This document shows, one piece after another, positions 37,382-49,174 of a DNA stretch of 64,000 bases. Under the pieces are notes generated by a model. It ran no database searches. It worked only from the letters and a program-made list of their open reading frames with translations, and was not told the DNA's origin. Within the stretch, counting starts at the first letter, position 1, and every line of letters begins with the position of its first letter. Both the position numbers and the translations under genes were made by a program. Source of the stretch: Planctomycetota bacterium (GTDB lineage Bacteria > Planctomycetota > PLA2 > JAEUHO01); the NCBI GenBank assembly GCA_965223505.1, contig CBDCWP010000030.1, positions 192,001 through 256,000 on the forward strand, given 5' to 3'.

Positions 37382-37470
37382 CGCCGACGGATTCGATACC
37401 CTCTCCCTTGCGGTACGCACGAGCTCGTGCATCGCCGACCCCAGTGACGAACATCGAAGAGAAGGAAGCG

Positions 37471-37920
37471 ATGCAGCTCCTCGAACATCTATTTGTTTCC
37501 GGCGAGTTCCCCGAACGAGCCCGCCTGCTGTCCGGGCTGACGCTCGAGCAAGTCACGCTACGCCCCGATGGCGCGTCGCACTCGATCTACGAGGAGCTGT
37601 GGCACGTCGTGGCGTACCAGCACAGCGTCGTCGGCGGGGGCGACCCGGACGGCGCACGGTTTCCGACTGCGGCGCCGGAGCACGAGCACCAATGGCACGA
37701 CCTGGTGCGGAAGTTCCTGGACGGCGCTCGCGCTGCAGCGGCGTTGGGGCAGGCGCCCGAGCAGTTGGCGCGCGAGCTCGAGCCGGGGCTGACGCTGGCC
37801 GACGAGCTGAAGTGTGTGGCCGAGCACAACGCCTTTCACCTTGGCAAGATCGTTGCGTTACGGCAGCGGATTGGTGCGTGGCCGACAGCGGACGCGCCTG
37901 CTTCCGATCCCAGCTTGTGA
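37471..37920 (+). CDS. DinB family protein
   Basis: HSIYEELWHV, EHNAFHLGKIV; AAGGAAG RBS. Confidence 0.85.
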   Translation: MQLLEHLFVSGEFPERARLLSGLTLEQVTLRPDGASHSIYEELWHVVAYQHSVVGGGDPDGARFPTAAPEHEHQWHDLVRKFLDGARAAAALGQAPEQLARELEPGLTLADELKCVAEHNAFHLGKIVALRQRIGAWPTADAPASDPSL

Positions 37921-37972
37921 GTTCCGAGACGAGGTGGGAAAGGCCGGCACGCATTCCGTACGATCGGCGGCG

Positions 37973-38764
37973 ATGGAGGCCCTGCGCGCGATTCGCGAGC
38001 TCTACGATCGTCACGAGCGGCGGCCTGTCGTCATCGACGGCATGGCGCGCGAAGAGACGAGCCGAACCCTGCGATTCGTCAACCTCGGCCGAGGTCCGGG
38101 CGTGGTGATCCACTCGAATCTCGACGAGGACAGCGCCGACGAGGCGATCGGTGCGGAGGTGGCTCGCTTCCGAGACGCCGGACAGGCGTTCGAGTGGAAG
38201 CTCCACGACTACGACGAGCCGTCTGATCTGCGACGGCGGCTGGGACGATTCGGCTTCGTTCCACAGCCGGAGGAAGTGCTCGTCGCGTTCGATCTCGACG
38301 GGCCCTTGCCGGCGACGCCGTCGGAGGTGGAAGTGCGATCCGTCGCTGACGTTGCGGGGTTGGACACAGTCCACGGCATCCGCAGCGCTGCGTTTGGTCG
38401 CGAGCAGGCGTGGCAAAGGGAGGCTCTGCGCGAGGAGTTCGCACGCGCACCGGAGGAGCTGCGCGTATTCGTCGCGTACGTCGACGGTGAGCCTGCCGCC
38501 GCCGGTTGGTCGCGTTTGCTTCCTGGCAGTCCGTTCGCCACCCTTTGGGGCGGCGGCACGGTGCCCGCTCGTCGTCGCCGGGGCGCCTACCGCGCCCTGG
38601 TGGCCCGGCGCCTTGCGGACGCGCGGCAGCGAGGGTACCGCCAGGCACTCGTCGATGCCGGGCCGGAGAGCCTGCCGATCTTGGAGCGACTGGGGTTCAT
38701 GCGCGTCGCCCGGATGACGCCGATGATGTGGCATCCGCCGGAAGCCGACGCGCAAGAAACGTAA
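37973..38764 (+). CDS. GNAT family N-acetyltransferase
   Basis: LWGGGTVPARRRRGAYRALV, SLPILERLGF. Confidence 0.88.
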   Translation: MEALRAIRELYDRHERRPVVIDGMAREETSRTLRFVNLGRGPGVVIHSNLDEDSADEAIGAEVARFRDAGQAFEWKLHDYDEPSDLRRRLGRFGFVPQPEEVLVAFDLDGPLPATPSEVEVRSVADVAGLDTVHGIRSAAFGREQAWQREALREEFARAPEELRVFVAYVDGEPAAAGWSRLLPGSPFATLWGGGTVPARRRRGAYRALVARRLADARQRGYRQALVDAGPESLPILERLGFMRVARMTPMMWHPPEADAQET

Positions 38765-38891
38765 CGCCGGTCATGTTCTCGCGATGCGCCGCGCACGTCG
38801 AGCCGACGCCGTCGTGGCGCATACATGACGTGCAGGACTGGGCGTAAAGCGGGATCTTGCGCTGCGGGCGACCTCCCGGTTGACTCCCTCG

Positions 38892-41800
38892 GTGATCGGC
38901 AGCCGCGTCAGCGCCTACGAGGTCCTCTCCGAACTGGGTTCGGGCGGCATGGGGGCGGTCTACCTCGCCCGGTGCGCCGAAGCGTCGGCCGGGCTGGACG
39001 TCAGCACGCAGGTCGCGCTGAAGGTCATCCATCCGAACCTGCTGAGCCAGCCGGGGTTCTTCAAGCGCTTCCTGCGCGAGGCCCAGATCGGCCAGGACGT
39101 GCAGCACGAGAACGTCGTGCGGACCTACGACTGCGACGCGACCGACGTCGATGGCGCGGCCGCGCACTTCCTGGTCATGGAGTACGTCGAGGGCCAGACG
39201 CTGCGCGATCTCCTCGACGAGTTGGAGCGCGTCCCCGAGGAACTCTGCCGCCACGTCGGGTGCGAGGTGGCCAAGGGCTTGGCGGCGATCCACGAGGTGG
39301 GGGTCGTCCACCGCGACATCAAGCCCGAGAACGTGCTCATCACCGAGGACCACGTCGTGAAGGTGATGGACCTGGGCGTGGCGCGGCTCCAGGACGAGGC
39401 GATCCGGCTCTCGCAAACCGGGGCATTCGTGGGATCGCTGGAGTACGCCGCGCCCGAGCAGTTCCGCTCGGCCGACGGTGAGCCGGACGGACGCGCCGAC
39501 CTGCACTCCTTGGGCGTCGTGCTCTACGAGTTGGCGACGGGGCAGCATCCCTACCGCGACGAGGACGCCTCGAAGGTCCTGCGCAACATCCTCGACGTGG
39601 CGCCGAGGAAGGCGGGGGAGGTGAACCCGCAGCTATCGCCGTTCTTCGAGGAGGTCATCGGCACGCTGATCGCCAAGGACCGCGATGAACGGTTCGCCGA
39701 TGCGGCCGCCCTCGCGGCCGTGCTGGAGGAGGGCGAGCAGGGCGAGTGGTGGAAGGATCGCGCGAAGGCGCTGCGCATCGAGACGAAACGACCGCTGCGC
39801 CGCATCCGCATCCCCCGCGAGACGGCGCTCTACGGTCGCGACGACGACCTTGCCAAGCTCCAGTCACTGTACGAGAAGGCCAGGGATGGCGATGGGCAGG
39901 TCCTGCTGATCGAGGGCGAGGCGGGCATCGGCAAGACGCGGCTGGTGGACGAGTTCGTGGGGCGGCTTCGTCAGGAGGGCGAAGACCTCAACTTCCTATT
40001 CGGCTCCTACCCTCCGGGCGGCGCGGCGACGGCTTCGGGAGCCTTCTCCGAAGCGTACCGGGCGCAGTTCGGGGCGGAGGGCCTGGAGGAGACGCTCCGA
40101 GACCACCTGACCGTCACGCCCCTGCTGGTCCCCGCATTCGCCGCTCTCCTCAAGGGCGACGCGCCTCCCAAGGACGCCGAGCCCTTGACGAAGGACTCGC
40201 TCCAGACGGTGTTCGTCCACGCGACGCGCAATCTCGCCGCCGAGCGGCCGACGATCGTCTTGATCGACGACCTGCACTTCGCGCCGGAAGACGCGCGGTC
40301 GTTGTTCATGACGCTGGCGCTCGCCGTGCCGGGGCATCCGATCTTGCTCGTCGGGACGATGCGGCCGGGGGTGGACGAGACATGGATCTCGAACTTGACG
40401 AGGCTGGACCACGCCTCGCAGGCCGCGCTGCCGCGTCTCGGGCCGAAGGACTTGTCAGCGCTCCTGGAAGATGCATTCCGGTCCGAGCGACTTGCCGACG
40501 AGTTGGGCTGGAAAATCGCCCAGAGGTCCGACGGCAACCCCTTCTTCGCCTTCGAGATCATACGGGGCCTGCGCGAGGGGCAGTTCATCACGCAGCAGTC
40601 GGACGGCACCTGGGTCAGCACGCAGGTGATCCAGGACATCCAGATCCCCTCGTCGGTGCTGGACCTCGTGAGGGCACGCATCTCCGACTTGAGCCAGGGG
40701 GAGCGAGACCTGCTCGACGTGGCGTCGTGCTGCGGCTTCGAGTTCGATCCCGGGCTGCTGGCCACGGCCCTTGGCCAAGGCCGGATCCCTGTGCTCAAGG
40801 GTCTGGCGCAGATCGAGCGCGCCCATCGGCTCGTCCGGTCACGAGGTCGCAGCTTCGTTTTCGACCACCATCAGGTGCAGGAGGCGATCTACGACAGCCT
40901 GCCCGAGATGCTGCGCGAGGAGTACCACGCAGCCATCGCCGACGCGCTGGAGACGCGCGAGCAGGCCGCAGACAAGGATCCGCAGGACCTGGATGGTGCG
41001 TTGTGCGTGGACCTGTGCGAGCACTTCCTTCGAGGGGCGCAGGGGGACAAGGCTCTTCGTTATCTCGGCCCCGCCTTGAATCACTTGGAGGGAGCATATG
41101 TAAACGATCAGGCGGTCTCGCTGGTGACGCACGTCTTGGACGTCCCCGGGTTGCTGGAGGGCAGCATGCGGAGCGACACTCTGCTGCGTTTGATCTCGGT
41201 GCTCATGCGCCTCTCGCGTTACGCAGAGGCTGGAGAGGCTTGCAAGGAGGTGCTGCGCATCAGCGAGGCCCCGCGTGACCCAGCGAGAGCCGCCCAGGCT
41301 AGCGGCGAGTTGGGTTGGGCTCTCTATCGGCAGGGGCAGTACCAGGAGGCAGCCTTTAAGTTCGAGTCGGTGTTGAAGCTCGCCCGGGATCTCGGTGATC
41401 GGTCGATGGAGGCAAGGGCCGCTCTGGGTCTTGGCGGTGTGTTCGACTCCCTCGGGCAGCACATCGAGGCGCGTGCGGCTTGGGAGCGGGCCCTGGCTCT
41501 TGCCAGAGAGACTGGAGACCGGCGGACGGAGTCCGCATGCGTGACGAACATCGGCAACGCCTTCGCCGCCGAGGGGCGCAGCGCCGATGCCATCGAGCAC
41601 TACGAGATGTCGCACTCCCCGGACGATGGCCTCGAAGGCCGTTGGCGTCTCAATAGTCAGGCGATCACGCTTCACAATCGGGGAGTGGTCTTGGCGGCGC
41701 TGGGCGATCAAGAGGCGGCCGTGAGCTGTCAGGAGACGGCGATTCGAGTCAGTCGCGAGGCCGGATTCACGCACCTGACGGGCACGTCACTGATGGAGTT

Positions 41801-42296
41801 GGGACGCCTGCTGGAAGCCCGCGGCGAGCTAGAGGAGGCCGCCCGTACGCATGCTGATGGGATCCAGGTGCTCGCGGGGGTCGTGCGTGATGAGTTCGCC
41901 GCCTTGGGGCACCTCGCGTATGGGGTCCTTCTGGGACGCCTGGGCCACGAGGCCGAGGGGCGCGCCCACCTACGAGAATCGCTCGCTGTGGCTTCAGAGG
42001 CAGGAGCGCCAGGGGTGCGACTCCTCGCACTTCTCCAGCTGGAGCGTCTGGGTGAGTGTGAGGCCGAGCGTGTGCTAGCTGCCTTCGAAGAGGACAAGGA
42101 CCGCCTTCACCACGACGTGAAGCGAGAGGTCCTGCTGCTCCTCTACGACATGACGGGTGAGCGCCGGTACCTAGAGGATGCCCATCGACATCTCATGTTC
42201 TTCGTCGAGCACGCGCCCGCGCAGTACCGCGAGACCACGCTCACCAACGTCAGACTGCACCGCGAGATCATGGAGGCGTGGGACGAGCAGCAATAG
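38892..42296 (+). CDS. Ser/Thr kinase-STAND ATPase-TPR protein, copy 1
   Basis: LGSGGMGAVY, HRDIKPEN, DLG, YAAPE; Walker A GEAGIGKT, Walker B IDDLH, SDGNPFF; TPR-like C-terminal part. Confidence 0.93.
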   Translation: MIGSRVSAYEVLSELGSGGMGAVYLARCAEASAGLDVSTQVALKVIHPNLLSQPGFFKRFLREAQIGQDVQHENVVRTYDCDATDVDGAAAHFLVMEYVEGQTLRDLLDELERVPEELCRHVGCEVAKGLAAIHEVGVVHRDIKPENVLITEDHVVKVMDLGVARLQDEAIRLSQTGAFVGSLEYAAPEQFRSADGEPDGRADLHSLGVVLYELATGQHPYRDEDASKVLRNILDVAPRKAGEVNPQLSPFFEEVIGTLIAKDRDERFADAAALAAVLEEGEQGEWWKDRAKALRIETKRPLRRIRIPRETALYGRDDDLAKLQSLYEKARDGDGQVLLIEGEAGIGKTRLVDEFVGRLRQEGEDLNFLFGSYPPGGAATASGAFSEAYRAQFGAEGLEETLRDHLTVTPLLVPAFAALLKGDAPPKDAEPLTKDSLQTVFVHATRNLAAERPTIVLIDDLHFAPEDARSLFMTLALAVPGHPILLVGTMRPGVDETWISNLTRLDHASQAALPRLGPKDLSALLEDAFRSERLADELGWKIAQRSDGNPFFAFEIIRGLREGQFITQQSDGTWVSTQVIQDIQIPSSVLDLVRARISDLSQGERDLLDVASCCGFEFDPGLLATALGQGRIPVLKGLAQIERAHRLVRSRGRSFVFDHHQVQEAIYDSLPEMLREEYHAAIADALETREQAADKDPQDLDGALCVDLCEHFLRGAQGDKALRYLGPALNHLEGAYVNDQAVSLVTHVLDVPGLLEGSMRSDTLLRLISVLMRLSRYAEAGEACKEVLRISEAPRDPARAAQASGELGWALYRQGQYQEAAFKFESVLKLARDLGDRSMEARAALGLGGVFDSLGQHIEARAAWERALALARETGDRRTESACVTNIGNAFAAEGRSADAIEHYEMSHSPDDGLEGRWRLNSQAITLHNRGVVLAALGDQEAAVSCQETAIRVSREAGFTHLTGTSLMELGRLLEARGELEEAARTHADGIQVLAGVVRDEFAALGHLAYGVLLGRLGHEAEGRAHLRESLAVASEAGAPGVRLLALLQLERLGECEAERVLAAFEEDKDRLHHDVKREVLLLLYDMTGERRYLEDAHRHLMFFVEHAPAQYRETTLTNVRLHREIMEAWDEQQ

Positions 42297-42329
42297 GCGG
42301 CCTCGCTGGCGCACCTGAATATTCTCTCG

Positions 42330-42523
42330 ATGCGTTCGTCGGGACGCGGCTAGAGCACGCCGCATGGCGTGCCGAAGCGCCGCAACGCCCGAGTTCTTCG
42401 GCGTTGCGATGCACCCCCGTACGCGGGGGTGCAAGGGGGTGCATCGAACCCGCAGATCGCACTACTACCCGACGTTTCGGGCTCCGAGAGCATCACCTCG
42501 TCATCGTGGCGCATCCATGACGT
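42330..42523. repeat. Degenerate ~190-bp repeat, copy 1
   Basis: TCGTCGGGACGCGGC...AGTTCTTCGGCGTTGCGATGCACCCC...GGCGCATCCAYGACGT shared with 46918-47112. Confidence 0.8.
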
Positions 42524-42539
42524 GGGAGAGTGGGCGTGA

Positions 42540-42989
42540 CTACTCGACGTCCTCACCGAGCGTACGAAGGTCGATGAGATCCTGCGGGCGTCCCGTGGCC
42601 CGCTTGTTGCGGATCAGGTCATGCCGGGAAATCACGTGGATGGGGCAGTCGCCGTACTGCGACTCGACACGCTCCGGCCACGATTCATGGAACTCGAGGC
42701 CTGTAACACCCATCAAGATGTCGATGCGGTTCGGGGGAACACCGATCTGGTACACCATTTCTTGGTTTGCGAGATCCTCAACCGTGACTTCGGAGACCGG
42801 CGCGCCGAACGAAGTCAGCGCCCGGTGCACTCGTGCGGCGTTCTCCGCCGATGCCTCGACCCAGATGTCGAGATCCTTGGTGAAGCGAGGCTGAGCGTGG
42901 AACGTGACCGCGTAGGCCCCGACCACGAGGTAGCGGACCTTAGCGGCGTTGAATGCGAGCAGTAGATCTCTGAAGTCGGGGTTGATCAC
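42540..42989 (-). CDS. Nucleotidyltransferase (DUF6036/AbiEii-like)
   Basis: YLVVGAYAV..H..PRFTKDLDIWV, LIRNKRATGRPQDLIDL. Confidence 0.85.
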   Translation of the reverse strand: MINPDFRDLLLAFNAAKVRYLVVGAYAVTFHAQPRFTKDLDIWVEASAENAARVHRALTSFGAPVSEVTVEDLANQEMVYQIGVPPNRIDILMGVTGLEFHESWPERVESQYGDCPIHVISRHDLIRNKRATGRPQDLIDLRTLGEDVE

Positions 42990-43149
42990 CGTCGGCTCCC
43001 TGCCACACGCGGGCTTCCAGCACCATCTCCCACATGGCCTCCATGCGTCTCTCCGGAGCCACGCTACGCCAGAAGGCCGCGTCGAACGCCTGCTCGTCCT
43101 CTCCCTGGCGGACCAGACTCCCAGTTATGACGCGATCGCCAGACACCAT
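42940..43149 (-). CDS. Small partner protein of the nucleotidyltransferase
   Basis: 69 aa, DAAFWRSVAPERRMEAMWEM...PRLQRS; overlaps the nucleotidyltransferase start. Confidence 0.7.
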   Translation of the reverse strand: MVSGDRVITGSLVRQGEDEQAFDAAFWRSVAPERRMEAMWEMVLEARVWQGADGDQPRLQRSTARIQRR

Positions 43150-43255
43150 GGGCGCATTGTACCGGCCACTGGGGCCGTCCACGCGTCGGAAGACGCTGTG
43201 TCTCCGCGTGTGCGGGCCGCTTGCGCTGACAGGCCGTTCCCGCTTCACTCGTTCC

Positions 43256-46200
43256 GTGATCGGCAGCCGCATCAGCGCCTACGAGGTCCTCTCCGAGCTG
43301 GGTTCGGGTGGCATGGGGTCCGTCTATCTGGCGAGGTGCGCCGAGGAGGCGGCGGCGCTGGACGCTGGCGTCCAGGTCGCCCTCAAGGTCATCCATCCGA
43401 ACCTCCTGAGCCAGCCGGGCTTCTTCAAGCGCTTCCTGCGCGAGGCCCAGATCGGGCAGGAGGTGCAGCACGAGAACGTCGTGCGGACCTACGACTGCGA
43501 CGCGACCGACGTCGATGGCGCGGCGGCGCACTTCCTCGTCATGGAGTACGTCGAGGGCCAGACGCTGCGCGATCTCCTCGACGAGTTGGAGCGCGTCCCG
43601 GAGGAGCTCTGCCGCCACATCGGTCGCGAGGTGGCCAAGGGCTTGGCGGCGATCCACGAAGCGGGCGTCGTCCACCGCGACATCAAGCCCGAGAACGTGC
43701 TGATCACCGAGGGGCACGTCGTCAAGGTGATGGACCTGGGCGTCGCCCGCCTCCAGGACGAGGCGATCCGGCTCTCCCAGGCGGGCGCGTTCGTGGGCTC
43801 GTTGGAGTACGCGGCGCCCGAACAATTCCGTTCCGCCGATGCCGAGCCCGATGGCCGCGCCGATCTGCACTCGCTCGGCGTCGTGCTCTACGAGTTGGCC
43901 ACGGGGCAGCATCCCTACCGGGACGAGGACATCTCGAAGGTCATGCGGAACATCCTCGACGAGGAGCCGCGCAAGGCAGGGGAGATCAACCCGCAGCTAT
44001 CGCCATTCTTCGAGGAAGTGATCGGCACCCTCATCGCCAAGGAGCGCGATGCTCGCTTCGCCGATGCGGCCACCCTCGCGGGCGTGCTGGAAGAGGGCGA
44101 GGGCGGCGAGTGGTGGAAGGCGCGCGCCAAGGCGCTGCGCGTCGAGACGAAGCGTCCGCTCCGGCGGATCCGCATCCCGCGCGAGACGGCGCTCTACGGC
44201 CGCGACGACGACCTCGCGAAGCTCCACGCACTGTTCGACAACGCGAAGGCGGGGAACGGTCAAGTGCTCTTGATCGAAGGCGAAGCGGGCATCGGCAAGA
44301 CGCGCCTCGTGGACGAGTTCGTCGGGCGGCTGCGGCAAGAGGGCGAGGACATCAACTTCCTCTTCGGCAGCTACCCGCCGGGCGGAGCGGCGACGGCGGC
44401 GGGAGCCTTCTCCGAGGCGTACCGCGAGCAGTTCGGCGAGGAGGGCGCGGCACCCTGGCTTTCGCAGACGCCGATCCTGGTTCCCGCCTTCGACGCGCTG
44501 CTTCGCGGGGAGCCCGCGCCCAAGGACGCGGAGGCTCTCACGAAGGACTCGCTCGGGACGGTGTTCGTGCACGCGACGCGCAACCTCGCCGCCGAGCGGC
44601 CGACCATCGTGCTCATCGACGACCTCCACTTCGCGCCCGAGGATGCGCGGGCGTTGTTCTTGACGCTGGCCCTGGCTGCGCCCGGACATCCGATCCTGCT
44701 CGTGGGGACCATGCGCCCCGGTGTGGACGAAGAGTGGATCTCCCACGTGGCGCGGCTGGATCAGGCGTCGCACACGGGCCTGTTGCGATTGGGGCCGAAG
44801 GACCTGTTCAAGCTCCTCAAGGACTCGTTCCGTTCTGACCGCCTCGCTGAGGAACTGGGCATGCAGATCAGCGTGAAGTCCGACGGCAACCCGTTCTTCG
44901 CCTTCGAGATCATTCGGGGCCTGCGTGAGGGGCAGTTCATCACGCAGCAACTTGACGGAACCTGGGCTAGCACCCAGGTGGTCGAGGAGATCCAGATCCC
45001 GTCGTCGCTATTGGATCTCGTGAACGCGCGCGTTGCGGGCCTGTCCGAAGCAGAGCGCGATCTTCTCGATGTCGCCTGCTGCTGCGGGTTCGAGTTCGAT
45101 CCTGGCCTGATCGGGGACGTGCTGGGCCTGCGGCGCATTCCGCTGCTCAAGCGGTTCGGGCAGATCGAACGGGCGCATCGCCTCGTGCGCTCATCGGGGC
45201 GCAACTACGTCTTTGATCACCATCAAGTGCAAGAGGCTCTCTACGGCAGTCTGCACGAGCAGATGCGCGAGGAGTACCACGCCGCCATCGCCGACGCCTT
45301 GGAGGCTCGCGCGAACGCCGACGACAAGGACCCGAAGGACTTGGATGGCGCGTTGTGCGTAGACCTGTGTGAGCACTTCCTGAAGGGAGCGCAGGGAAAG
45401 TCTGCCCTCCGCTATCTCGACGCGGCGCTCACGCATCTGGAGGTGAGCTACCTAAACGAAAGCGCCATCAAACTCGCCGAGCGCGCTCTCGCGTCTCCCA
45501 GTCTGTTGGAGGGCGACCGGCGCTTCGATGTACTTTACCGAGAGAACGGAGTACTGGGCCGCCTGGGGCGCCGGGATGCGCAAGCAGAGGTTCTTGCTGA
45601 TGCGCTAGCTCTCGCCAACGGCTCGGGGAACCAGGGCGCTTCCGTGAAAGCGGAACAGGCCATGGCGTATCTGCTGGAGAGGACCGGCCGCTACGAGCTT
45701 GCGCTTCCGCACGCTCGACGGGCACTCGACATTGCCCGTGCCACCGATGATCGCAGGGGCGAGATAGGTGCGATCATCGTCGAGGGGTTAGTGCGGTACG
45801 CCCAGGGAATGTACTCGGAGGCCATCGCACAGTTCGAGCACGCACTATTGATCGCGCTGCAGATCGATGATCTCCTGGCCGAGGCCAGTGTGCGCCACAA
45901 CCTGGGGAACCCCTTGGCGAGCCTCGGGCGCATCGACGAGGCATGGGTGCACTTTAGTCGTGCGGCAGAATTGTATGAGGAGGTGGGTGACCTGCTGGCC
46001 CGGGGCAACATCGCGAACAATCTCGGACTAGTTTTGGTACTCAGAGGCCGACTTCGAGAAGCGGAATCCTGCTACGAGCGCGCTCTTGCCTACAAGCAGG
46101 CAGCGGGCGATCGTGCTTCCGAGTCCGTGACCATCGGAAACTTGGGGCAGTTGCAGTTGATGTACGGGAGCACGGACCATGCGCGGGTCGCTTGTGAGCG

Positions 46201-46768
46201 TGCGCTGACACTCGCTGAGCAATCTGGTGCACTACATGCAAGATGCGAGAGCCTCCATGCGCTTGGCATGGTGGCAGCGCAGGCTGGTGAACTTGTGCAA
46301 GCACGTGGCTGGTACGAACAGGCGTCGTCCGTTCGAAACGACGCTGGCTCGCTTCAAGGCGAAGCGGAGACTCTCTTGGCGCTTGGAGAGTGCCTGCTTC
46401 AGGAGGGACACCGCGAGCGAAGTGACGCGCTGATGGAGGCAGCCTTGGCGTTGGCAAGGGAGACGGGTGCGCGAGGCGCGGAGGTCGAAGCGGCCTGCCA
46501 CCTGGCGCTGCGACCCGGCGGGGACGTCGATGAGGCGTTGGCGTGTTTTGATGCGAGGCATGATGCGCTGGCACACCGTGAAAGGATGAGGGCGCGCTAC
46601 CTGTTGTTCAAGGCGACAGGCAGGCGCGAACACCTTGCCGAGGCCCGGCGCCTCCTGAACTACTTCGTAGAGCACGCCCCTGCGGAGCATCGCGAGTCGA
46701 TGTTGACCAACGTGCGCCTGCACCGCGAGATCATGGAGGCATGGGAGGCGCATCAGGCGGCCTCGTAG
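43256..46768 (+). CDS. Ser/Thr kinase-STAND ATPase-TPR protein, copy 2
   Basis: Same motifs as copy 1; GTG start VIGSRISAYE; TPR motifs HNLGNPL, NNLGLV, GNLGQL. Confidence 0.93.
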   Translation: MIGSRISAYEVLSELGSGGMGSVYLARCAEEAAALDAGVQVALKVIHPNLLSQPGFFKRFLREAQIGQEVQHENVVRTYDCDATDVDGAAAHFLVMEYVEGQTLRDLLDELERVPEELCRHIGREVAKGLAAIHEAGVVHRDIKPENVLITEGHVVKVMDLGVARLQDEAIRLSQAGAFVGSLEYAAPEQFRSADAEPDGRADLHSLGVVLYELATGQHPYRDEDISKVMRNILDEEPRKAGEINPQLSPFFEEVIGTLIAKERDARFADAATLAGVLEEGEGGEWWKARAKALRVETKRPLRRIRIPRETALYGRDDDLAKLHALFDNAKAGNGQVLLIEGEAGIGKTRLVDEFVGRLRQEGEDINFLFGSYPPGGAATAAGAFSEAYREQFGEEGAAPWLSQTPILVPAFDALLRGEPAPKDAEALTKDSLGTVFVHATRNLAAERPTIVLIDDLHFAPEDARALFLTLALAAPGHPILLVGTMRPGVDEEWISHVARLDQASHTGLLRLGPKDLFKLLKDSFRSDRLAEELGMQISVKSDGNPFFAFEIIRGLREGQFITQQLDGTWASTQVVEEIQIPSSLLDLVNARVAGLSEAERDLLDVACCCGFEFDPGLIGDVLGLRRIPLLKRFGQIERAHRLVRSSGRNYVFDHHQVQEALYGSLHEQMREEYHAAIADALEARANADDKDPKDLDGALCVDLCEHFLKGAQGKSALRYLDAALTHLEVSYLNESAIKLAERALASPSLLEGDRRFDVLYRENGVLGRLGRRDAQAEVLADALALANGSGNQGASVKAEQAMAYLLERTGRYELALPHARRALDIARATDDRRGEIGAIIVEGLVRYAQGMYSEAIAQFEHALLIALQIDDLLAEASVRHNLGNPLASLGRIDEAWVHFSRAAELYEEVGDLLARGNIANNLGLVLVLRGRLREAESCYERALAYKQAAGDRASESVTIGNLGQLQLMYGSTDHARVACERALTLAEQSGALHARCESLHALGMVAAQAGELVQARGWYEQASSVRNDAGSLQGEAETLLALGECLLQEGHRERSDALMEAALALARETGARGAEVEAACHLALRPGGDVDEALACFDARHDALAHRERMRARYLLFKATGRREHLAEARRLLNYFVEHAPAEHRESMLTNVRLHREIMEAWEAHQAAS

Positions 46769-46917
46769 GCGCCCCGAACATTCGTGAGATGCCCTCGTCG
46801 AGCCGCGACAGTGAGATCGACCACATCTGCTTTGATCAGACAGGTGCGTACATTCCTCTGGGTGGCTAGCTCATGCGCAAGGCTTGATGGTTTGATCGCC
46901 GGGGGGCGGCGGCAGGA

Positions 46918-47112
46918 TACGCTCGTCGGGACGCGGCAGGGGAATGCGGCTTGGCATGCGGAGGCGGCGTAGTGCCTCTAGTTCTTCGGCGTTGCGATGC
47001 ACCCCGTGTCCCCGGGGGAGCAAGGGGGAGCATCGCAGACACAGGCCAACGAATTGCGCCACGATCTGGGCTCCACGGGCGCCACGTCGTCATCGCGGCG
47101 CATCCACGACGT
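46918..47112. repeat. Degenerate ~190-bp repeat, copy 2
   Basis: Matches 42330-42523. Confidence 0.8.
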
Positions 47113-47139
47113 CGAGGACGGGGCGTAGATCGGTGTCAG

Positions 47140-47376
47140 GACGACACCCGGCCCGCGCGCTTGAGTACGGGTCACTCCAAGGATGGCGACGCCGACCTCC
47201 AGCAACAGGTAGATCACGAGTGTCACGCTGGGTCGGCCGTCGACGACGAGGCTCAGTACGCGACCTGCCGCGAGACCCGTCATCAAGAAAACGACGGAGA
47301 GCACGGCGGCTCGCGCCCAAGGGGGGCCGAACGCGGCCATCAGCCAGTAGAGCGACAGGCTCCCCCCGCGAGCAGC
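47140..47376 (-). pseudogene. Fragment of a DUF4345-like membrane protein
   Basis: FLMTGLAAGRVLSLVVDGRP....YLLLEVG; N-terminal half appears missing; ends approximate. Confidence 0.45.
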
Positions 47377-47431
47377 AGGCAGAATCTGGTGAACGTCAAG
47401 TCAGTCCTCGTTCTTCCCGCGGGCGTCTTGG

Positions 47432-47527
47432 GTCGAGCACGCGCCGGAGACGTATCGCCTCACCACGCTCACGAACGTCAGGCTCCACCGTGAGATCACG
47501 GATGCGTGGATCGCGTTGCGCGACTGA
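47432..47527 (+). pseudogene. Orphan C-terminus of a third kinase-STAND-TPR gene
   Basis: Own translation VEHAPETYRLTTLTNVRLHREITDAWIALRD*, matching VEHAPAQYRETTLTNVRLHREIMEAW of copy 1. Confidence 0.85.
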
Positions 47528-47542
47528 GCGACGCGCGGCGTC

Positions 47543-49174
47543 CTAGTTCTCGACGACCTCTTCCATGCTCGGCATCGTCTCTTGATGCGCGAGCGCCGCC
47601 ACGATGAACTCGCGGAACAACGGGTGCGGCCTCGTCGGCTTGCTCTTGAACTCGGGATGGAACTGCACACCCACGAAGTACGGATGCTCGGGTAGCTCCA
47701 CGATCTCGACCAGATCGCGCTCCGGGTTCGTCCCGCCGATCAGCATGCCCGATTCGACCAATCGATCGCGGTACTCGTTGTTGAACTCGTACCGGTGACG
47801 ATGGCGCTCCTGCACCGTCTCGTCGTCGTACGCCGCGCGTGACTTCGATCCGGCACGAAGCGCACAGACGTACGCACCCAGACGCATGGTGCCGCCCTTC
47901 TCGAGTCCCTTCTGATCCGGCATCAGGTCGATCACCGGATGCGGCGTGTGCTCGTCGAACTCCGTGCTGTGCGCACCTTCGAGCCCCGCCACGTTGCGCG
48001 CGTACTCGATCACGGCGCACTGCATGCCGAGACACAGCCCCAGGAACGGCACCCCGTTCTCGCGCGCCCAGCGGATGGCCTCGACCTTGCCCTCGATGCC
48101 GCGCTCGCCGAACCCGCCCGGCACCACGATGCCGTGCACCCCGCCCAGGCGCTGCGCCGCGTTCTCCGCCGTGATGTCCTCGGCCTGTACCCGCCGCACC
48201 CGCACCTTCGACTCCGCGTGGAAGCCCGAGTGCGCGATCGCCTCGTACACGCTCTTGTACGCGTCGGTCAGCTCGATGTACTTGCCGACCAGCGCGACCT
48301 CGACCTGTCGTTTGGGGTTGCGAATGCGCTCGAGCAACGCGTGATAGGCGTCGAGCTGCAGTTCACCCATCGGCAATCCCAGCCGCTCCGTGATCAGCCG
48401 GTCCAGGCCCTGCTCCGCCAACATCTGGGGCACCTCGTAGATGCTCGTCGGCACGTCTTGCTCTTCCACGACGCAGTCCACCGGCACGTTGCAGAACAAC
48501 GAGAGCTTCGAACGAATCTCCTGTGTCAGCGGACGCTCCGTACGACAGATCAACACATCGGGCTGGATGCCGATCTCGCGCAGCTTCATCACCGAGTGCT
48601 GGCTCGGCTTCGACTTGAGCTCGCCACTGGCCCGCAGGTACGGGATCAACGTGAGGTGGCAGACCATCGCGTTTTCGCGGCCCACGTCGAGGATGAACTG
48701 ACGAATCGCCTCGAGGAACGGCTGGCTCTCGATGTCACCCGCCGTGCCGCCGAGCTCGCAGATCAGCACCTCGGCGTCGCCGGCGCCGGCGCGGATGCCC
48801 TGCTTGATCTCGTTCGTGACGTGCGGGATGACCTGGACCGTCTTGCCCAGGTAGTCGCCGCGCCGCTCCTTCTGGATGATGCTCGCGTAGATCTTGCCGG
48901 TCGTGTAGTTGCTGTCCTTCGTCAGGACCGCGCCCTCGGTGAAGCGCTCGTAGTGGCCCAGGTCGAGATCGGTCTCGGCGCCGTCCTCGGTGACGTAGAC
49001 CTCGCCGTGCTGATAGGGCGACATCGTCCCCGGATCGACGTTGAGGTACGGGTCCAGCTTCTGGTGCTGGACGCGGACGCCGCGGCCCTCGAGAAGGAGT
49101 CCGATCGACGCGCTCGTGAGTCCTTTGCCGAGGCTCGAGGCCACGCCCCCGGTCACGAAGATGTACTTCGTCAC
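47543..49174 (-). CDS. pyrG: CTP synthase
   Basis: [55 protein letters not shown]. Confidence 0.98.

Follow-up and report, generated by a model that had tools for sequence, protein, structure and literature searches.

Two kinase-STAND-TPR genes with divergent sensor regions in a likely stack of site-specific cassettes at an alkA-derived site

The window, a stretch of 64,000 nucleotides from a Planctomycetota bacterium, carries a 10-kb insert in the interval between glyS and pyrG (Table 1). Together with a lipoprotein gene, these two genes are neighbors in four other genomes (G003, G038, G001, and G032). The insert contains two kinase-STAND-TPR genes, g1 and g2, and three copies of a motif that translates to the end of alkA, two of them preceded by a conserved arm of ~190 nt. 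The units set off in this way are 0.8 to 4.6 kb long and hold one or two genes each, including a nucleotidyltransferase and its small partner, which we take to be a possible toxin-antitoxin pair. We found no clear alkA-end copy immediately 5′ of g2, where the table lists a weak candidate; the family leader also occurs without the alkA-end motif in G037. The arm repeat had no match in Rfam at E ≤ 1. One hairpin, about 60 nt from the core, is common to the junctions, with slight compensatory change and fold z scores of −0.4 to −5.4.

Table 1. Features of the insert, in window coordinates.
Feature	Position	Strand	Remarks
DinB-family gene	37471..37920	+	Left part of insert; Pfam DinB_2
GNAT acetyltransferase	37973..38764	+	Insert cargo; Pfam; GC3 0.79
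M0, alkA 3′-end copy	38814..38847	+	W-R-I-H-D-V-Q-D-W-A-stop; directly 5′ of g1
g1	38892..42296	+	1134 aa; GTG start inferred
g1 kinase	to ~39750	+	
g1 STAND NBD/helical/winged-helix	~39816-41080	+	
g1 TPR array	~41130-42150	+	Followed by C-terminal cap
R1, conserved noncoding arm	42316..42505	+	TGCACCCC sites in direct and inverted orientation; predicted arm of an integrase attachment site
M1, second alkA 3′-end copy	42506..42539	+	GTGGCGC core at its start
DUF6036-like nucleotidyltransferase	42540..42989	-	Pfam, just under cut-off
Small partner ORF of nucleotidyltransferase	42940..43152	-	75% identical in G017
Possible eroded alkA-end copy and family leader	43170..43255	+	5′ of g2; weak
g2	43256..46768	+	1170 aa; architecture as g1; TPR ~45480-46600
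R2, second arm	46912..47094	+	74% identical to R1
M2, third alkA 3′-end copy	47095..47128	+	
DUF4345 fragment	47129..47340	-	Pfam
C-terminal remnant of third kinase-STAND-TPR gene	47420..47527	+	Start approximate

Both g1 and g2 are intact ORFs that match Pkinase, AAA_16, and TPR_12, each above the Pfam cut-offs, and encode a PknB-like kinase, a STAND ATPase of the AAA_16 type, and an array of 40-residue TPR repeats. The kinase motifs are complete (Gly loop, VAIK lysine, HRD, DFG in the form DLG, and APE); judged by these motifs, both proteins are predicted Hanks-type Ser/Thr kinases. Walker A and B, sensor-1, GxP, and winged-helix elements are present, followed by helical repeats, which places both proteins among the STAND NTPases with a TPR sensor. 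An alignment-assisted AlphaFold model has a mean pLDDT of 93 and folds the entire TPR array. Foldseek matched PknB and the STAND-TPR protein 6mfv (E 1.4e-14), and the kinase compares with PknA/PknB structures at Z 32 and an rmsd of about 2.0 across 260 to 270 residues. The single-sequence STAND-TPR model is poor (pLDDT 51), and from its Foldseek list we take no more than its agreement with an LGN/Pins-type TPR profile match. With the ATPase as query, the best E value in a PDB sequence search was only 0.036, and the best NCBIfam match was a kinase/cyclase fusion (TIGR03903, E 7e-35, under cut-off).

Contigs from run X1 cover positions 39906-42410 and 44884-48026, including the ATPase-TPR junctions of both genes, with 0 differences, which speaks against an assembly chimera; because X1 is possibly the source sample itself, the agreement bears on the assembly only. 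The apparent lack of the g1 TPR in sample X3 comes from low-depth data, of which 66% was read, and no contig bridges the gap. One joint seen in X3, leading to a gene that lies 46 kb upstream, was rejected as an artifact, given that just 3 to 4 letters are shared and glyS would be deleted.

The preliminary description of this DNA had reported two genes nearly identical up to a TPR region that is barely alignable and lower in GC. Near identity applies to the kinase only (92%), and the rest of the flank forms a gradient, with 83% in the NBD and 74% in the helical/winged-helix region. Identity then drops near 41130/45480 to 30% in the TPR, although the two regions can still be aligned as members of a single family of 40-residue repeats. 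As described, it returns at VEHAP..LTNVRLHREIMEAW, with 66% in the cap, and a third copy of that C terminus lies at about 47420-47527. The drop in GC3 is real, from 0.94/0.91 in the kinases of g1/g2 to 0.75/0.69 in the TPRs; the two drops rank 1 and 2 among the genome's 358 long ORFs (some of whose frames are spurious), and low TPR GC3 is confined to the four mobile copies examined. Total GC falls little, from about 0.69 to only 0.60-0.66. The proposed NLR-like architecture, with a sensor much more divergent than its chassis, was borne out.

We compared these sensors with those of 196 family proteins, which remained from 214 after 18 failing the kinase, ATPase, or cap filters were removed before pair counts; the set is skewed toward g1 and toward the TPR of g2. 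TPR length fits 40-residue steps in 182 of the 196 (54 expected). The TPRs of g1, g2, and the copy in G003, a genome of another genus, are among the most divergent of all, and repeats within one array are at most 38% (g1) or 32% (g2) identical. No close donor TPR was found for g2 (best 40 to 42%) or, among these 196 proteins, for g1 (best 37%), and no TPR block common to different backbones was found for either.

Informative sites are clustered into tracts (p = 1e-4), the mapped breakpoints fall within the kinase-ATPase half, and the domain trees conflict, with the TPR trees disagreeing with the others. The kinase-ATPase half is of mosaic ancestry, and recombination spans the whole signaling half. 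Uniform divergence, congruent trees, and invariant orthologs, which would have spoken against a diversifying array, were not what we found; the TPR of the positional counterpart in G003 is just 25% identical to that of g1, in contrast to 88% for the kinase. Other genes are 81% (pyrG), 68% (MTAP), and 61% (alkA) identical between these two genomes; an out-of-frame pyrG comparison of G000 with G017 was left aside.

In G003, alkA is immediately followed by this g1-type gene, whose leader is that of g1. Junctions of arm plus motif also occur behind intact alkA in G017 and G038, and the junction pattern was matched in 3 of 40 genomes (control, 0). After this junction, G017 has an 81% identical counterpart of the DUF6036-like gene, and G038 has a homolog in that place; in G001, a copy of the DinB gene (79% identical) is found some 6 kb past alkA. 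One of four matches in a metagenome pattern scan is a true arm, on L080; the other three are unrelated palindromes. L080 and G017 differ by a 1,309-bp insertion between otherwise almost identical flanks (644/645 and 2655/2656), with a 15-bp direct repeat at its bounds. Since the relatives carry such junctions behind alkA, since L080 and G017 form a filled/empty pair, and since a g1-type gene stands behind alkA in G003, integrase-less cassettes were likely added to the array site specifically, in preference to its growth by local duplication. In the genome studied here (G000), the stack is detached from alkA, which is on another contig with its site empty. No integrase was found within the arrays examined, and none could be linked to the site. 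In 16 regions flanking alkA or the arrays, several of which are short contigs, there was no match to four recombinases of G000. Our literature search returned no report of alkA or a glycosylase as an integration target.

Very probably, a cassette would consist of a new alkA end, cargo, and arm, recombined at the GTGGCGC core by a tyrosine integrase encoded elsewhere, with the earlier alkA end displaced. Homologous recombination among copies would then, we think with good though lesser confidence, mix and homogenize the conserved half while the TPR diverges by substitution and by gain or loss of 40-residue repeats; the TPR would diverge separately from that half because it is too divergent to recombine.

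The preliminary description proposed that the TPR sensor is exchanged by recombination between conserved flanks; on that reading, a local tandem duplication would have had its TPR blocks swapped through a double crossover between ATPase and C-terminal cap. Identity and GC3 are indeed lower across the TPR and rise again at the cap, and the TPR trees conflict with the others. In 5 of 6 pairs, the four-fold sites of the TPR stand at chance level or close to it, but such silent-site saturation is weak evidence in an alignment of 30% identity. We nevertheless consider this history very unlikely, given that identity declines gradually, the cap is just 135 nt and 50 to 70% identical, no TPR block shared with a different backbone was found for g1 or g2, and attachment-like junctions lie between the genes. 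In the helical domain, moreover, g1 is 84% identical to the copies from G003 and C43 and only 74% identical to g2. What stands is that there are two intact genes and that recombination occurred; cassette stacking at an alkA-derived site fits better than duplication, and exchange of TPR blocks between flanks is not what the recombination data show. It is still more improbable that sensor diversity was never selected, with TPRs of mobile copies drifting to lower GC and gene conversion keeping the 5′ half. Such relaxed selection would agree with repeat scores 9th, 8th, and 4th from the bottom of 196, with a GC3 drop confined to mobile copies, and with a genome rich in broken family fragments. Against it, four of four ORFs are open across the TPR up to the conserved cap, scaffold positions fit the consensus in 70 to 77% of repeats versus 28 to 33% elsewhere (family median, 81%), and the alignment-assisted model folds the entire array.

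Alternatively, cassettes with the same history could encode ordinary one-component signaling kinases whose inputs are metabolites or host proteins and whose phosphorylation target is a regulator, for example an ECF sigma factor. An ECF sigma gene is nearby at 4 of 30 family loci examined (three in G000, on C10, C5, and C21, and a fourth in G001), and kinase-associated ECF groups are described in PMC7826278. The kinase/cyclase fusion as best NCBIfam match (under cut-off) and the miscellaneous remaining cargo point the same way, as does the scarcity of defense neighbors, which are not enriched around family loci. Among 92 neighboring ORFs, PADLOC reported a single island with a type I restriction enzyme and SoFic, a mad2-like protein, and three matches to mad3/mad8 that we read as ABC ATPases. 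Yet g1, g2, and the G003 copy have neither an ECF neighbor nor the N-terminal extension seen in paralogs linked to ECF genes, and their TPRs, among the most divergent of 196, are unexpected for a fixed host ligand. We regard ordinary signaling as rather unlikely.

Our preferred reading, held at about even confidence, is that g1 and g2 are mobile cassettes without an integrase, stacked in succession at an insertion site that arose from the 3′ end of alkA, and that their products recognize different ligands inside the cell, with invader proteins as the likeliest candidates. By analogy with other STAND proteins, ligand binding in the TPR groove would probably lead to ADP/ATP exchange and oligomerization, upon which the kinases would activate one another in trans and phosphorylate a host target. 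The genes are possibly sensors for invader proteins; we give slightly less than even odds to a protein ligand from a phage or another foreign source combined with growth arrest as the output. A search of viral contigs with the g1 ATPase found no relative. The broadest version, in which non-attC, integron-like capture at the alkA 3′ end stacks single-gene NLR-like receptors with compatible chassis and unique sensors into a reshufflable immune repertoire, the front cassette being expressed from a DNA-repair operon, is doubtful.

With 1,249 matches and members in 27 of 31 genomes, these data indicate a large, uncharacterized family of STAND proteins with kinase output. The locus joins two phenomena that are usually separate, non-integron site-specific cassette capture and fast diversification of NLR-like sensors. 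Because natural pairs combine a near-constant chassis with different TPRs, ligand specificity is directly testable by domain swaps.

The name SWACOS, reportedly from Leipe in 2004, is said to cover STAND proteins with an adenylyl cyclase or Ser/Thr kinase. It is used as a clade name in PMC13581612 and PMC13236601, and the supplement of the former had no match for kinase/SWACOS. By profile and architecture, the g1/g2 family resembles SWACOS-type STAND NTPases in that a Ser/Thr kinase is fused to TPRs and to a STAND module of the AAA_16 type, with an ATPase that matches TIGR03903 below its cut-off, but g1 and g2 lack a cyclase domain and lie on attachment-bounded cassettes. They share the effector-STAND-TPR layout with Avs and bacterial NACHT NLRs, for which bioRxiv 2022.07.19.500537 describes a conserved NTPase, a rapidly diverging C terminus, and the Walker B signature D[GAS]hDE. 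The likeness to Avs suggested earlier shrank to the Walker A motif: PADLOC Avs2 matches span about 40 residues there (E 0.009 to 0.07, in a 2023 library without newer Avs families), no match to Avs and NACHT profiles went beyond that level, and Walker B reads LIDDLH, which departs from the NACHT signature. The g1/g2 family also differs in having a kinase as its effector, in its roughly 10 paralogs per genome, and in loci without defense context. Fungal NLRs whose repeats shuffle and are highly conserved vary in repeat number and at variable positions in a fixed scaffold, according to PMC13449251, and to that extent the g1/g2 family is similar; the repeats within g1 and g2, at ≤38% and ≤32%, are far less alike than the ~80% used for that class, a level attained by just 15 of 190 members of the family. 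Integron cassette arrays and CALINs likewise hold small, promoter-poor cassettes with DinB, GNAT, and toxin-antitoxin-like cargo, and their newest unit lies beside the insertion point, as we infer here. The junctions appear not to be attC hairpins with a stem-base crossover, and an integron was rejected after a search of G000 (92% complete) for its integrase (TIGR02249) gave 0 matches over cut-off. CIMEs and tandemly accreted integrative elements are, according to PMC5704250, integrase-less, attachment-bounded units stacked at a replaced gene 3′ end. Ours are smaller units (0.8 to 4.6 kb) targeting alkA, with no parent element found, and near-identical strains differ by the exact presence or absence of a 1.3-kb unit; like CIMEs, the units at the alkA site are bounded by attachment sequences, lack an integrase, and lie at a replaced gene end.

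Both g1 and g2 contain all of the kinase, Walker A and B, sensor-1, GxP and winged-helix motifs, and the profile matches in the table confirm the effector-STAND-TPR layout proposed in the preliminary description. An alignment-based AlphaFold model had a mean pLDDT of 93, and its structure matches were PknB/PknA and the STAND-TPR structure 6mfv. The two genes are 92% identical in the kinase, 83% in the NBD, 74% in the helical domain, 30% in the TPR region and 66% in the cap. A divergent TPR region and renewed similarity beyond it were thus as described, but the upstream flank is not constant, its identity falling gradually. The lower GC of the TPR region held, GC3 dropping from 0.94 to 0.75 in g1 and from 0.91 to 0.69 in g2. 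Contigs from a sequencing run crossed both ATPase-TPR junctions without change. The feature is real, and its function is putative.

Kinase-STAND-TPR features of the window
Feature	Position	Reading	Profiles above cut-off
g1	38892-42296	long ORF, GTG start inferred	Pkinase, AAA_16, TPR_12
g2	43256-46768	long ORF, GTG start inferred	Pkinase, AAA_16, TPR_12
Third C-terminal remnant of kinase-STAND-TPR gene	about 47420-47527		

The window corresponds to C30:192001-256000 of the source genome, G000. This genome holds 10 family matches, at least one occurs in 27 of 31 genomes, and of 7,994 candidates scored in a database search 1,249 were hits, 120 of them listed. Our comparison set comprised 196 of 214 proteins. 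The TPR unit is a 40-residue LGN/Pins-like repeat; arrays fell within 5 residues of 333+40k in 182 of the 196 proteins (54 expected), and variability was focused on about ten repeat positions, which we infer face the groove. Pairwise kinase and ATPase identities rose together (Spearman 0.75); the correlation was weaker for ATPase with TPR (0.21) and almost nil for kinase with TPR (0.05), with closeness to the repeat consensus as a confounder. Close pairs (80 to 90% identity in the N-terminal part) mostly had moderately similar TPRs (median 54 to 58%), and TPR identity was ≤35% in only 8 of 146. Seven of these eight involve g1, g2, their paralog on contig C43 or the copy in related genome G003, and GC3 drops by 0.15 to 0.23 in these four mobile copies (−0.02 to 0.12 in 24 other measured members); therefore, the combination of constant chassis and divergent, low-GC3 TPR is specific to this subgroup and does not describe the family at large. 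Elsewhere in G000 we observed an orphan TPR-plus-cap C-terminal fragment and short kinase fragments (C11:72462-73202 and C11:88094-88483), and a paralog with a frameshifted kinase domain and an ECF sigma gene nearby (C5:63177-59451).

The preliminary description also proposed that recombination exchanges the TPR sensor. In the kinase-ATPase half of the four closest genes, 55 adjacent pairs of informative sites shared a pattern, compared with 35.6 expected (p = 1e-4), and clustering persisted at one site per codon (p = 7e-4). Across 16 proteins, every domain rejected the trees of the others; in a column-permutation control the gains of 158, 99 and 126 exceeded the highest permuted values (31, 73 and 50; 19 permutations each), although rate differences may contribute to the gains. 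The C43 paralog grouped with P0032 in the kinase tree (95), but the NBD tree placed it beside g2 and the copy from G003 (100). Recombination is thus supported for the chassis, but no donor TPR was found for g2 or, among the 196 proteins, for g1. Four-fold distances among the four closest genes were 0.37 to 0.81 in the kinase and NBD; TPR four-fold sites were saturated or nearly so in 5 of 6 pairs, which is weak evidence given how poorly this region aligns. Relative to housekeeping identity between G000 and G003 (pyrG 81%, MTAP 68%, alkA 61%), the g1-type chassis is unusually close (84 to 88%) and the TPR unusually far (25%). Chassis homogenisation and sensor swapping both fit these data; because the identity profile is gradual, homogenisation is favoured.

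The C43 paralog, the closest, has canonical repeats (C43:11044-16639) and lies in a separate island, adjoining a tyrosine recombinase at tRNA-Sec, that also has a ParB_N fragment. Another island (C21:372000-386000) carries a type I restriction enzyme, SoFic, a related tyrosine recombinase, an IS-like transposase fragment and a family kinase fragment.

In four relatives (G003, G038, G001 and G032), glyS, a lipoprotein gene and pyrG adjoin one another, so 37382-47542 is an insert. A 34-nt motif encoding the final residues of an AlkA-type glycosylase (HhH-GPD) stands in front of g1 and again behind both g1 and g2; a ~190-nt arm precedes the two copies behind the genes, and the two arms are 74% alike and absent elsewhere in G000. 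The arm-motif junction also lies downstream of intact alkA in G038 and, as two full copies, in G017, and a junction-pattern scan matched 3 of 40 genomes (control, 0). A reversed nucleotidyltransferase follows the junction in the window, G017 and G038 alike. In metagenome contig L080 the flanks agree with those of G017 at 644/645 and 2655/2656 bases, but a 1,309-bp unit bounded by a 15-bp direct repeat is missing; this unit brings its own alkA end together with an FGE-sulfatase gene and the arm. In G003, the closest g1 homolog starts ~50 nt after an intact alkA and shares this end type and the leader. A 79% identical copy of the insert's DinB gene lies downstream of alkA in G001. Several findings stand against a simple cassette picture: the source genome's own alkA, on C24, has an empty site; searches of the arrays examined found no integrase; and g2 is preceded by an eroded motif at best.

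The G017 array (C49:194-5667), with L080, contains at least four junctions and an exact filled/empty pair; the domain of its newest unit's FGE-sulfatase is described as receptor-type in conflict systems. In G038 (C12:10298-14157) and G039, a reversed TPR-CHAT gene lies directly 3' of alkA with the same replaced end, and is thus a second cargo of the repeat-effector kind here. The palindrome GAATATTC at the far end of the arm (window 42316-42330, and G017 and G038 arms) is kept in 4 of 5 arms and is possibly a host-factor site. A close kinase-STAND-TPR homolog in G037 has another DUF6036-like nucleotidyltransferase (G037:C518:5971-6423) 3 kb away; no alkA junction was detected there.

Among alkA 3' ends from 21 genomes, downstream genes varied where the end reads Y-M-W-R, while G000, G018, G013, G032 and G005 have other codons at the core and retain an AhpD-like neighbour, so insertion may require a particular target sequence. 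In the literature searched, thin in subscription papers, alkA was nowhere described as an integration target. The gene directly behind alkA on C24 (below 87700, minus strand), which we take to be AhpD-like, ends C-x-F at TGA, as at L093 and L049:2393-2986, and a second ORF appears to continue past the TGA; selenocysteine readthrough or a split gene is possible, and G000 encodes tRNA-Sec.

Following established STAND biology, a ligand docking on the TPR would release the ATPase, which would then oligomerise and allow the kinases to be activated in trans. Tentatively, and with slightly more doubt than belief, we suggest an invader as the ligand, because the mobile-copy sensors accumulate changes at about the neutral rate or above it but retain reading frames and scaffold positions. 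Counting against an invader, defence matches among 92 neighbours were few, no relative was found on viral contigs with the g1 ATPase as query, and ECF sigma genes are neighbours at 4 of 30 loci.

The g1 and g2 proteins would work like NLR/Avs receptors, but they fail the PADLOC Avs profiles. They fail the NACHT Walker B signature as given in bioRxiv 2022.07.19.500537. The SWACOS description, reportedly that of Leipe 2004, fits them. The window array resembles integrons, but no integron integrase scored above cut-off in G000 (92% complete), and the single hairpin shared by the arms sits some 60 nt off the junction core. The array would work like CIME accretion as described in PMC5704250.
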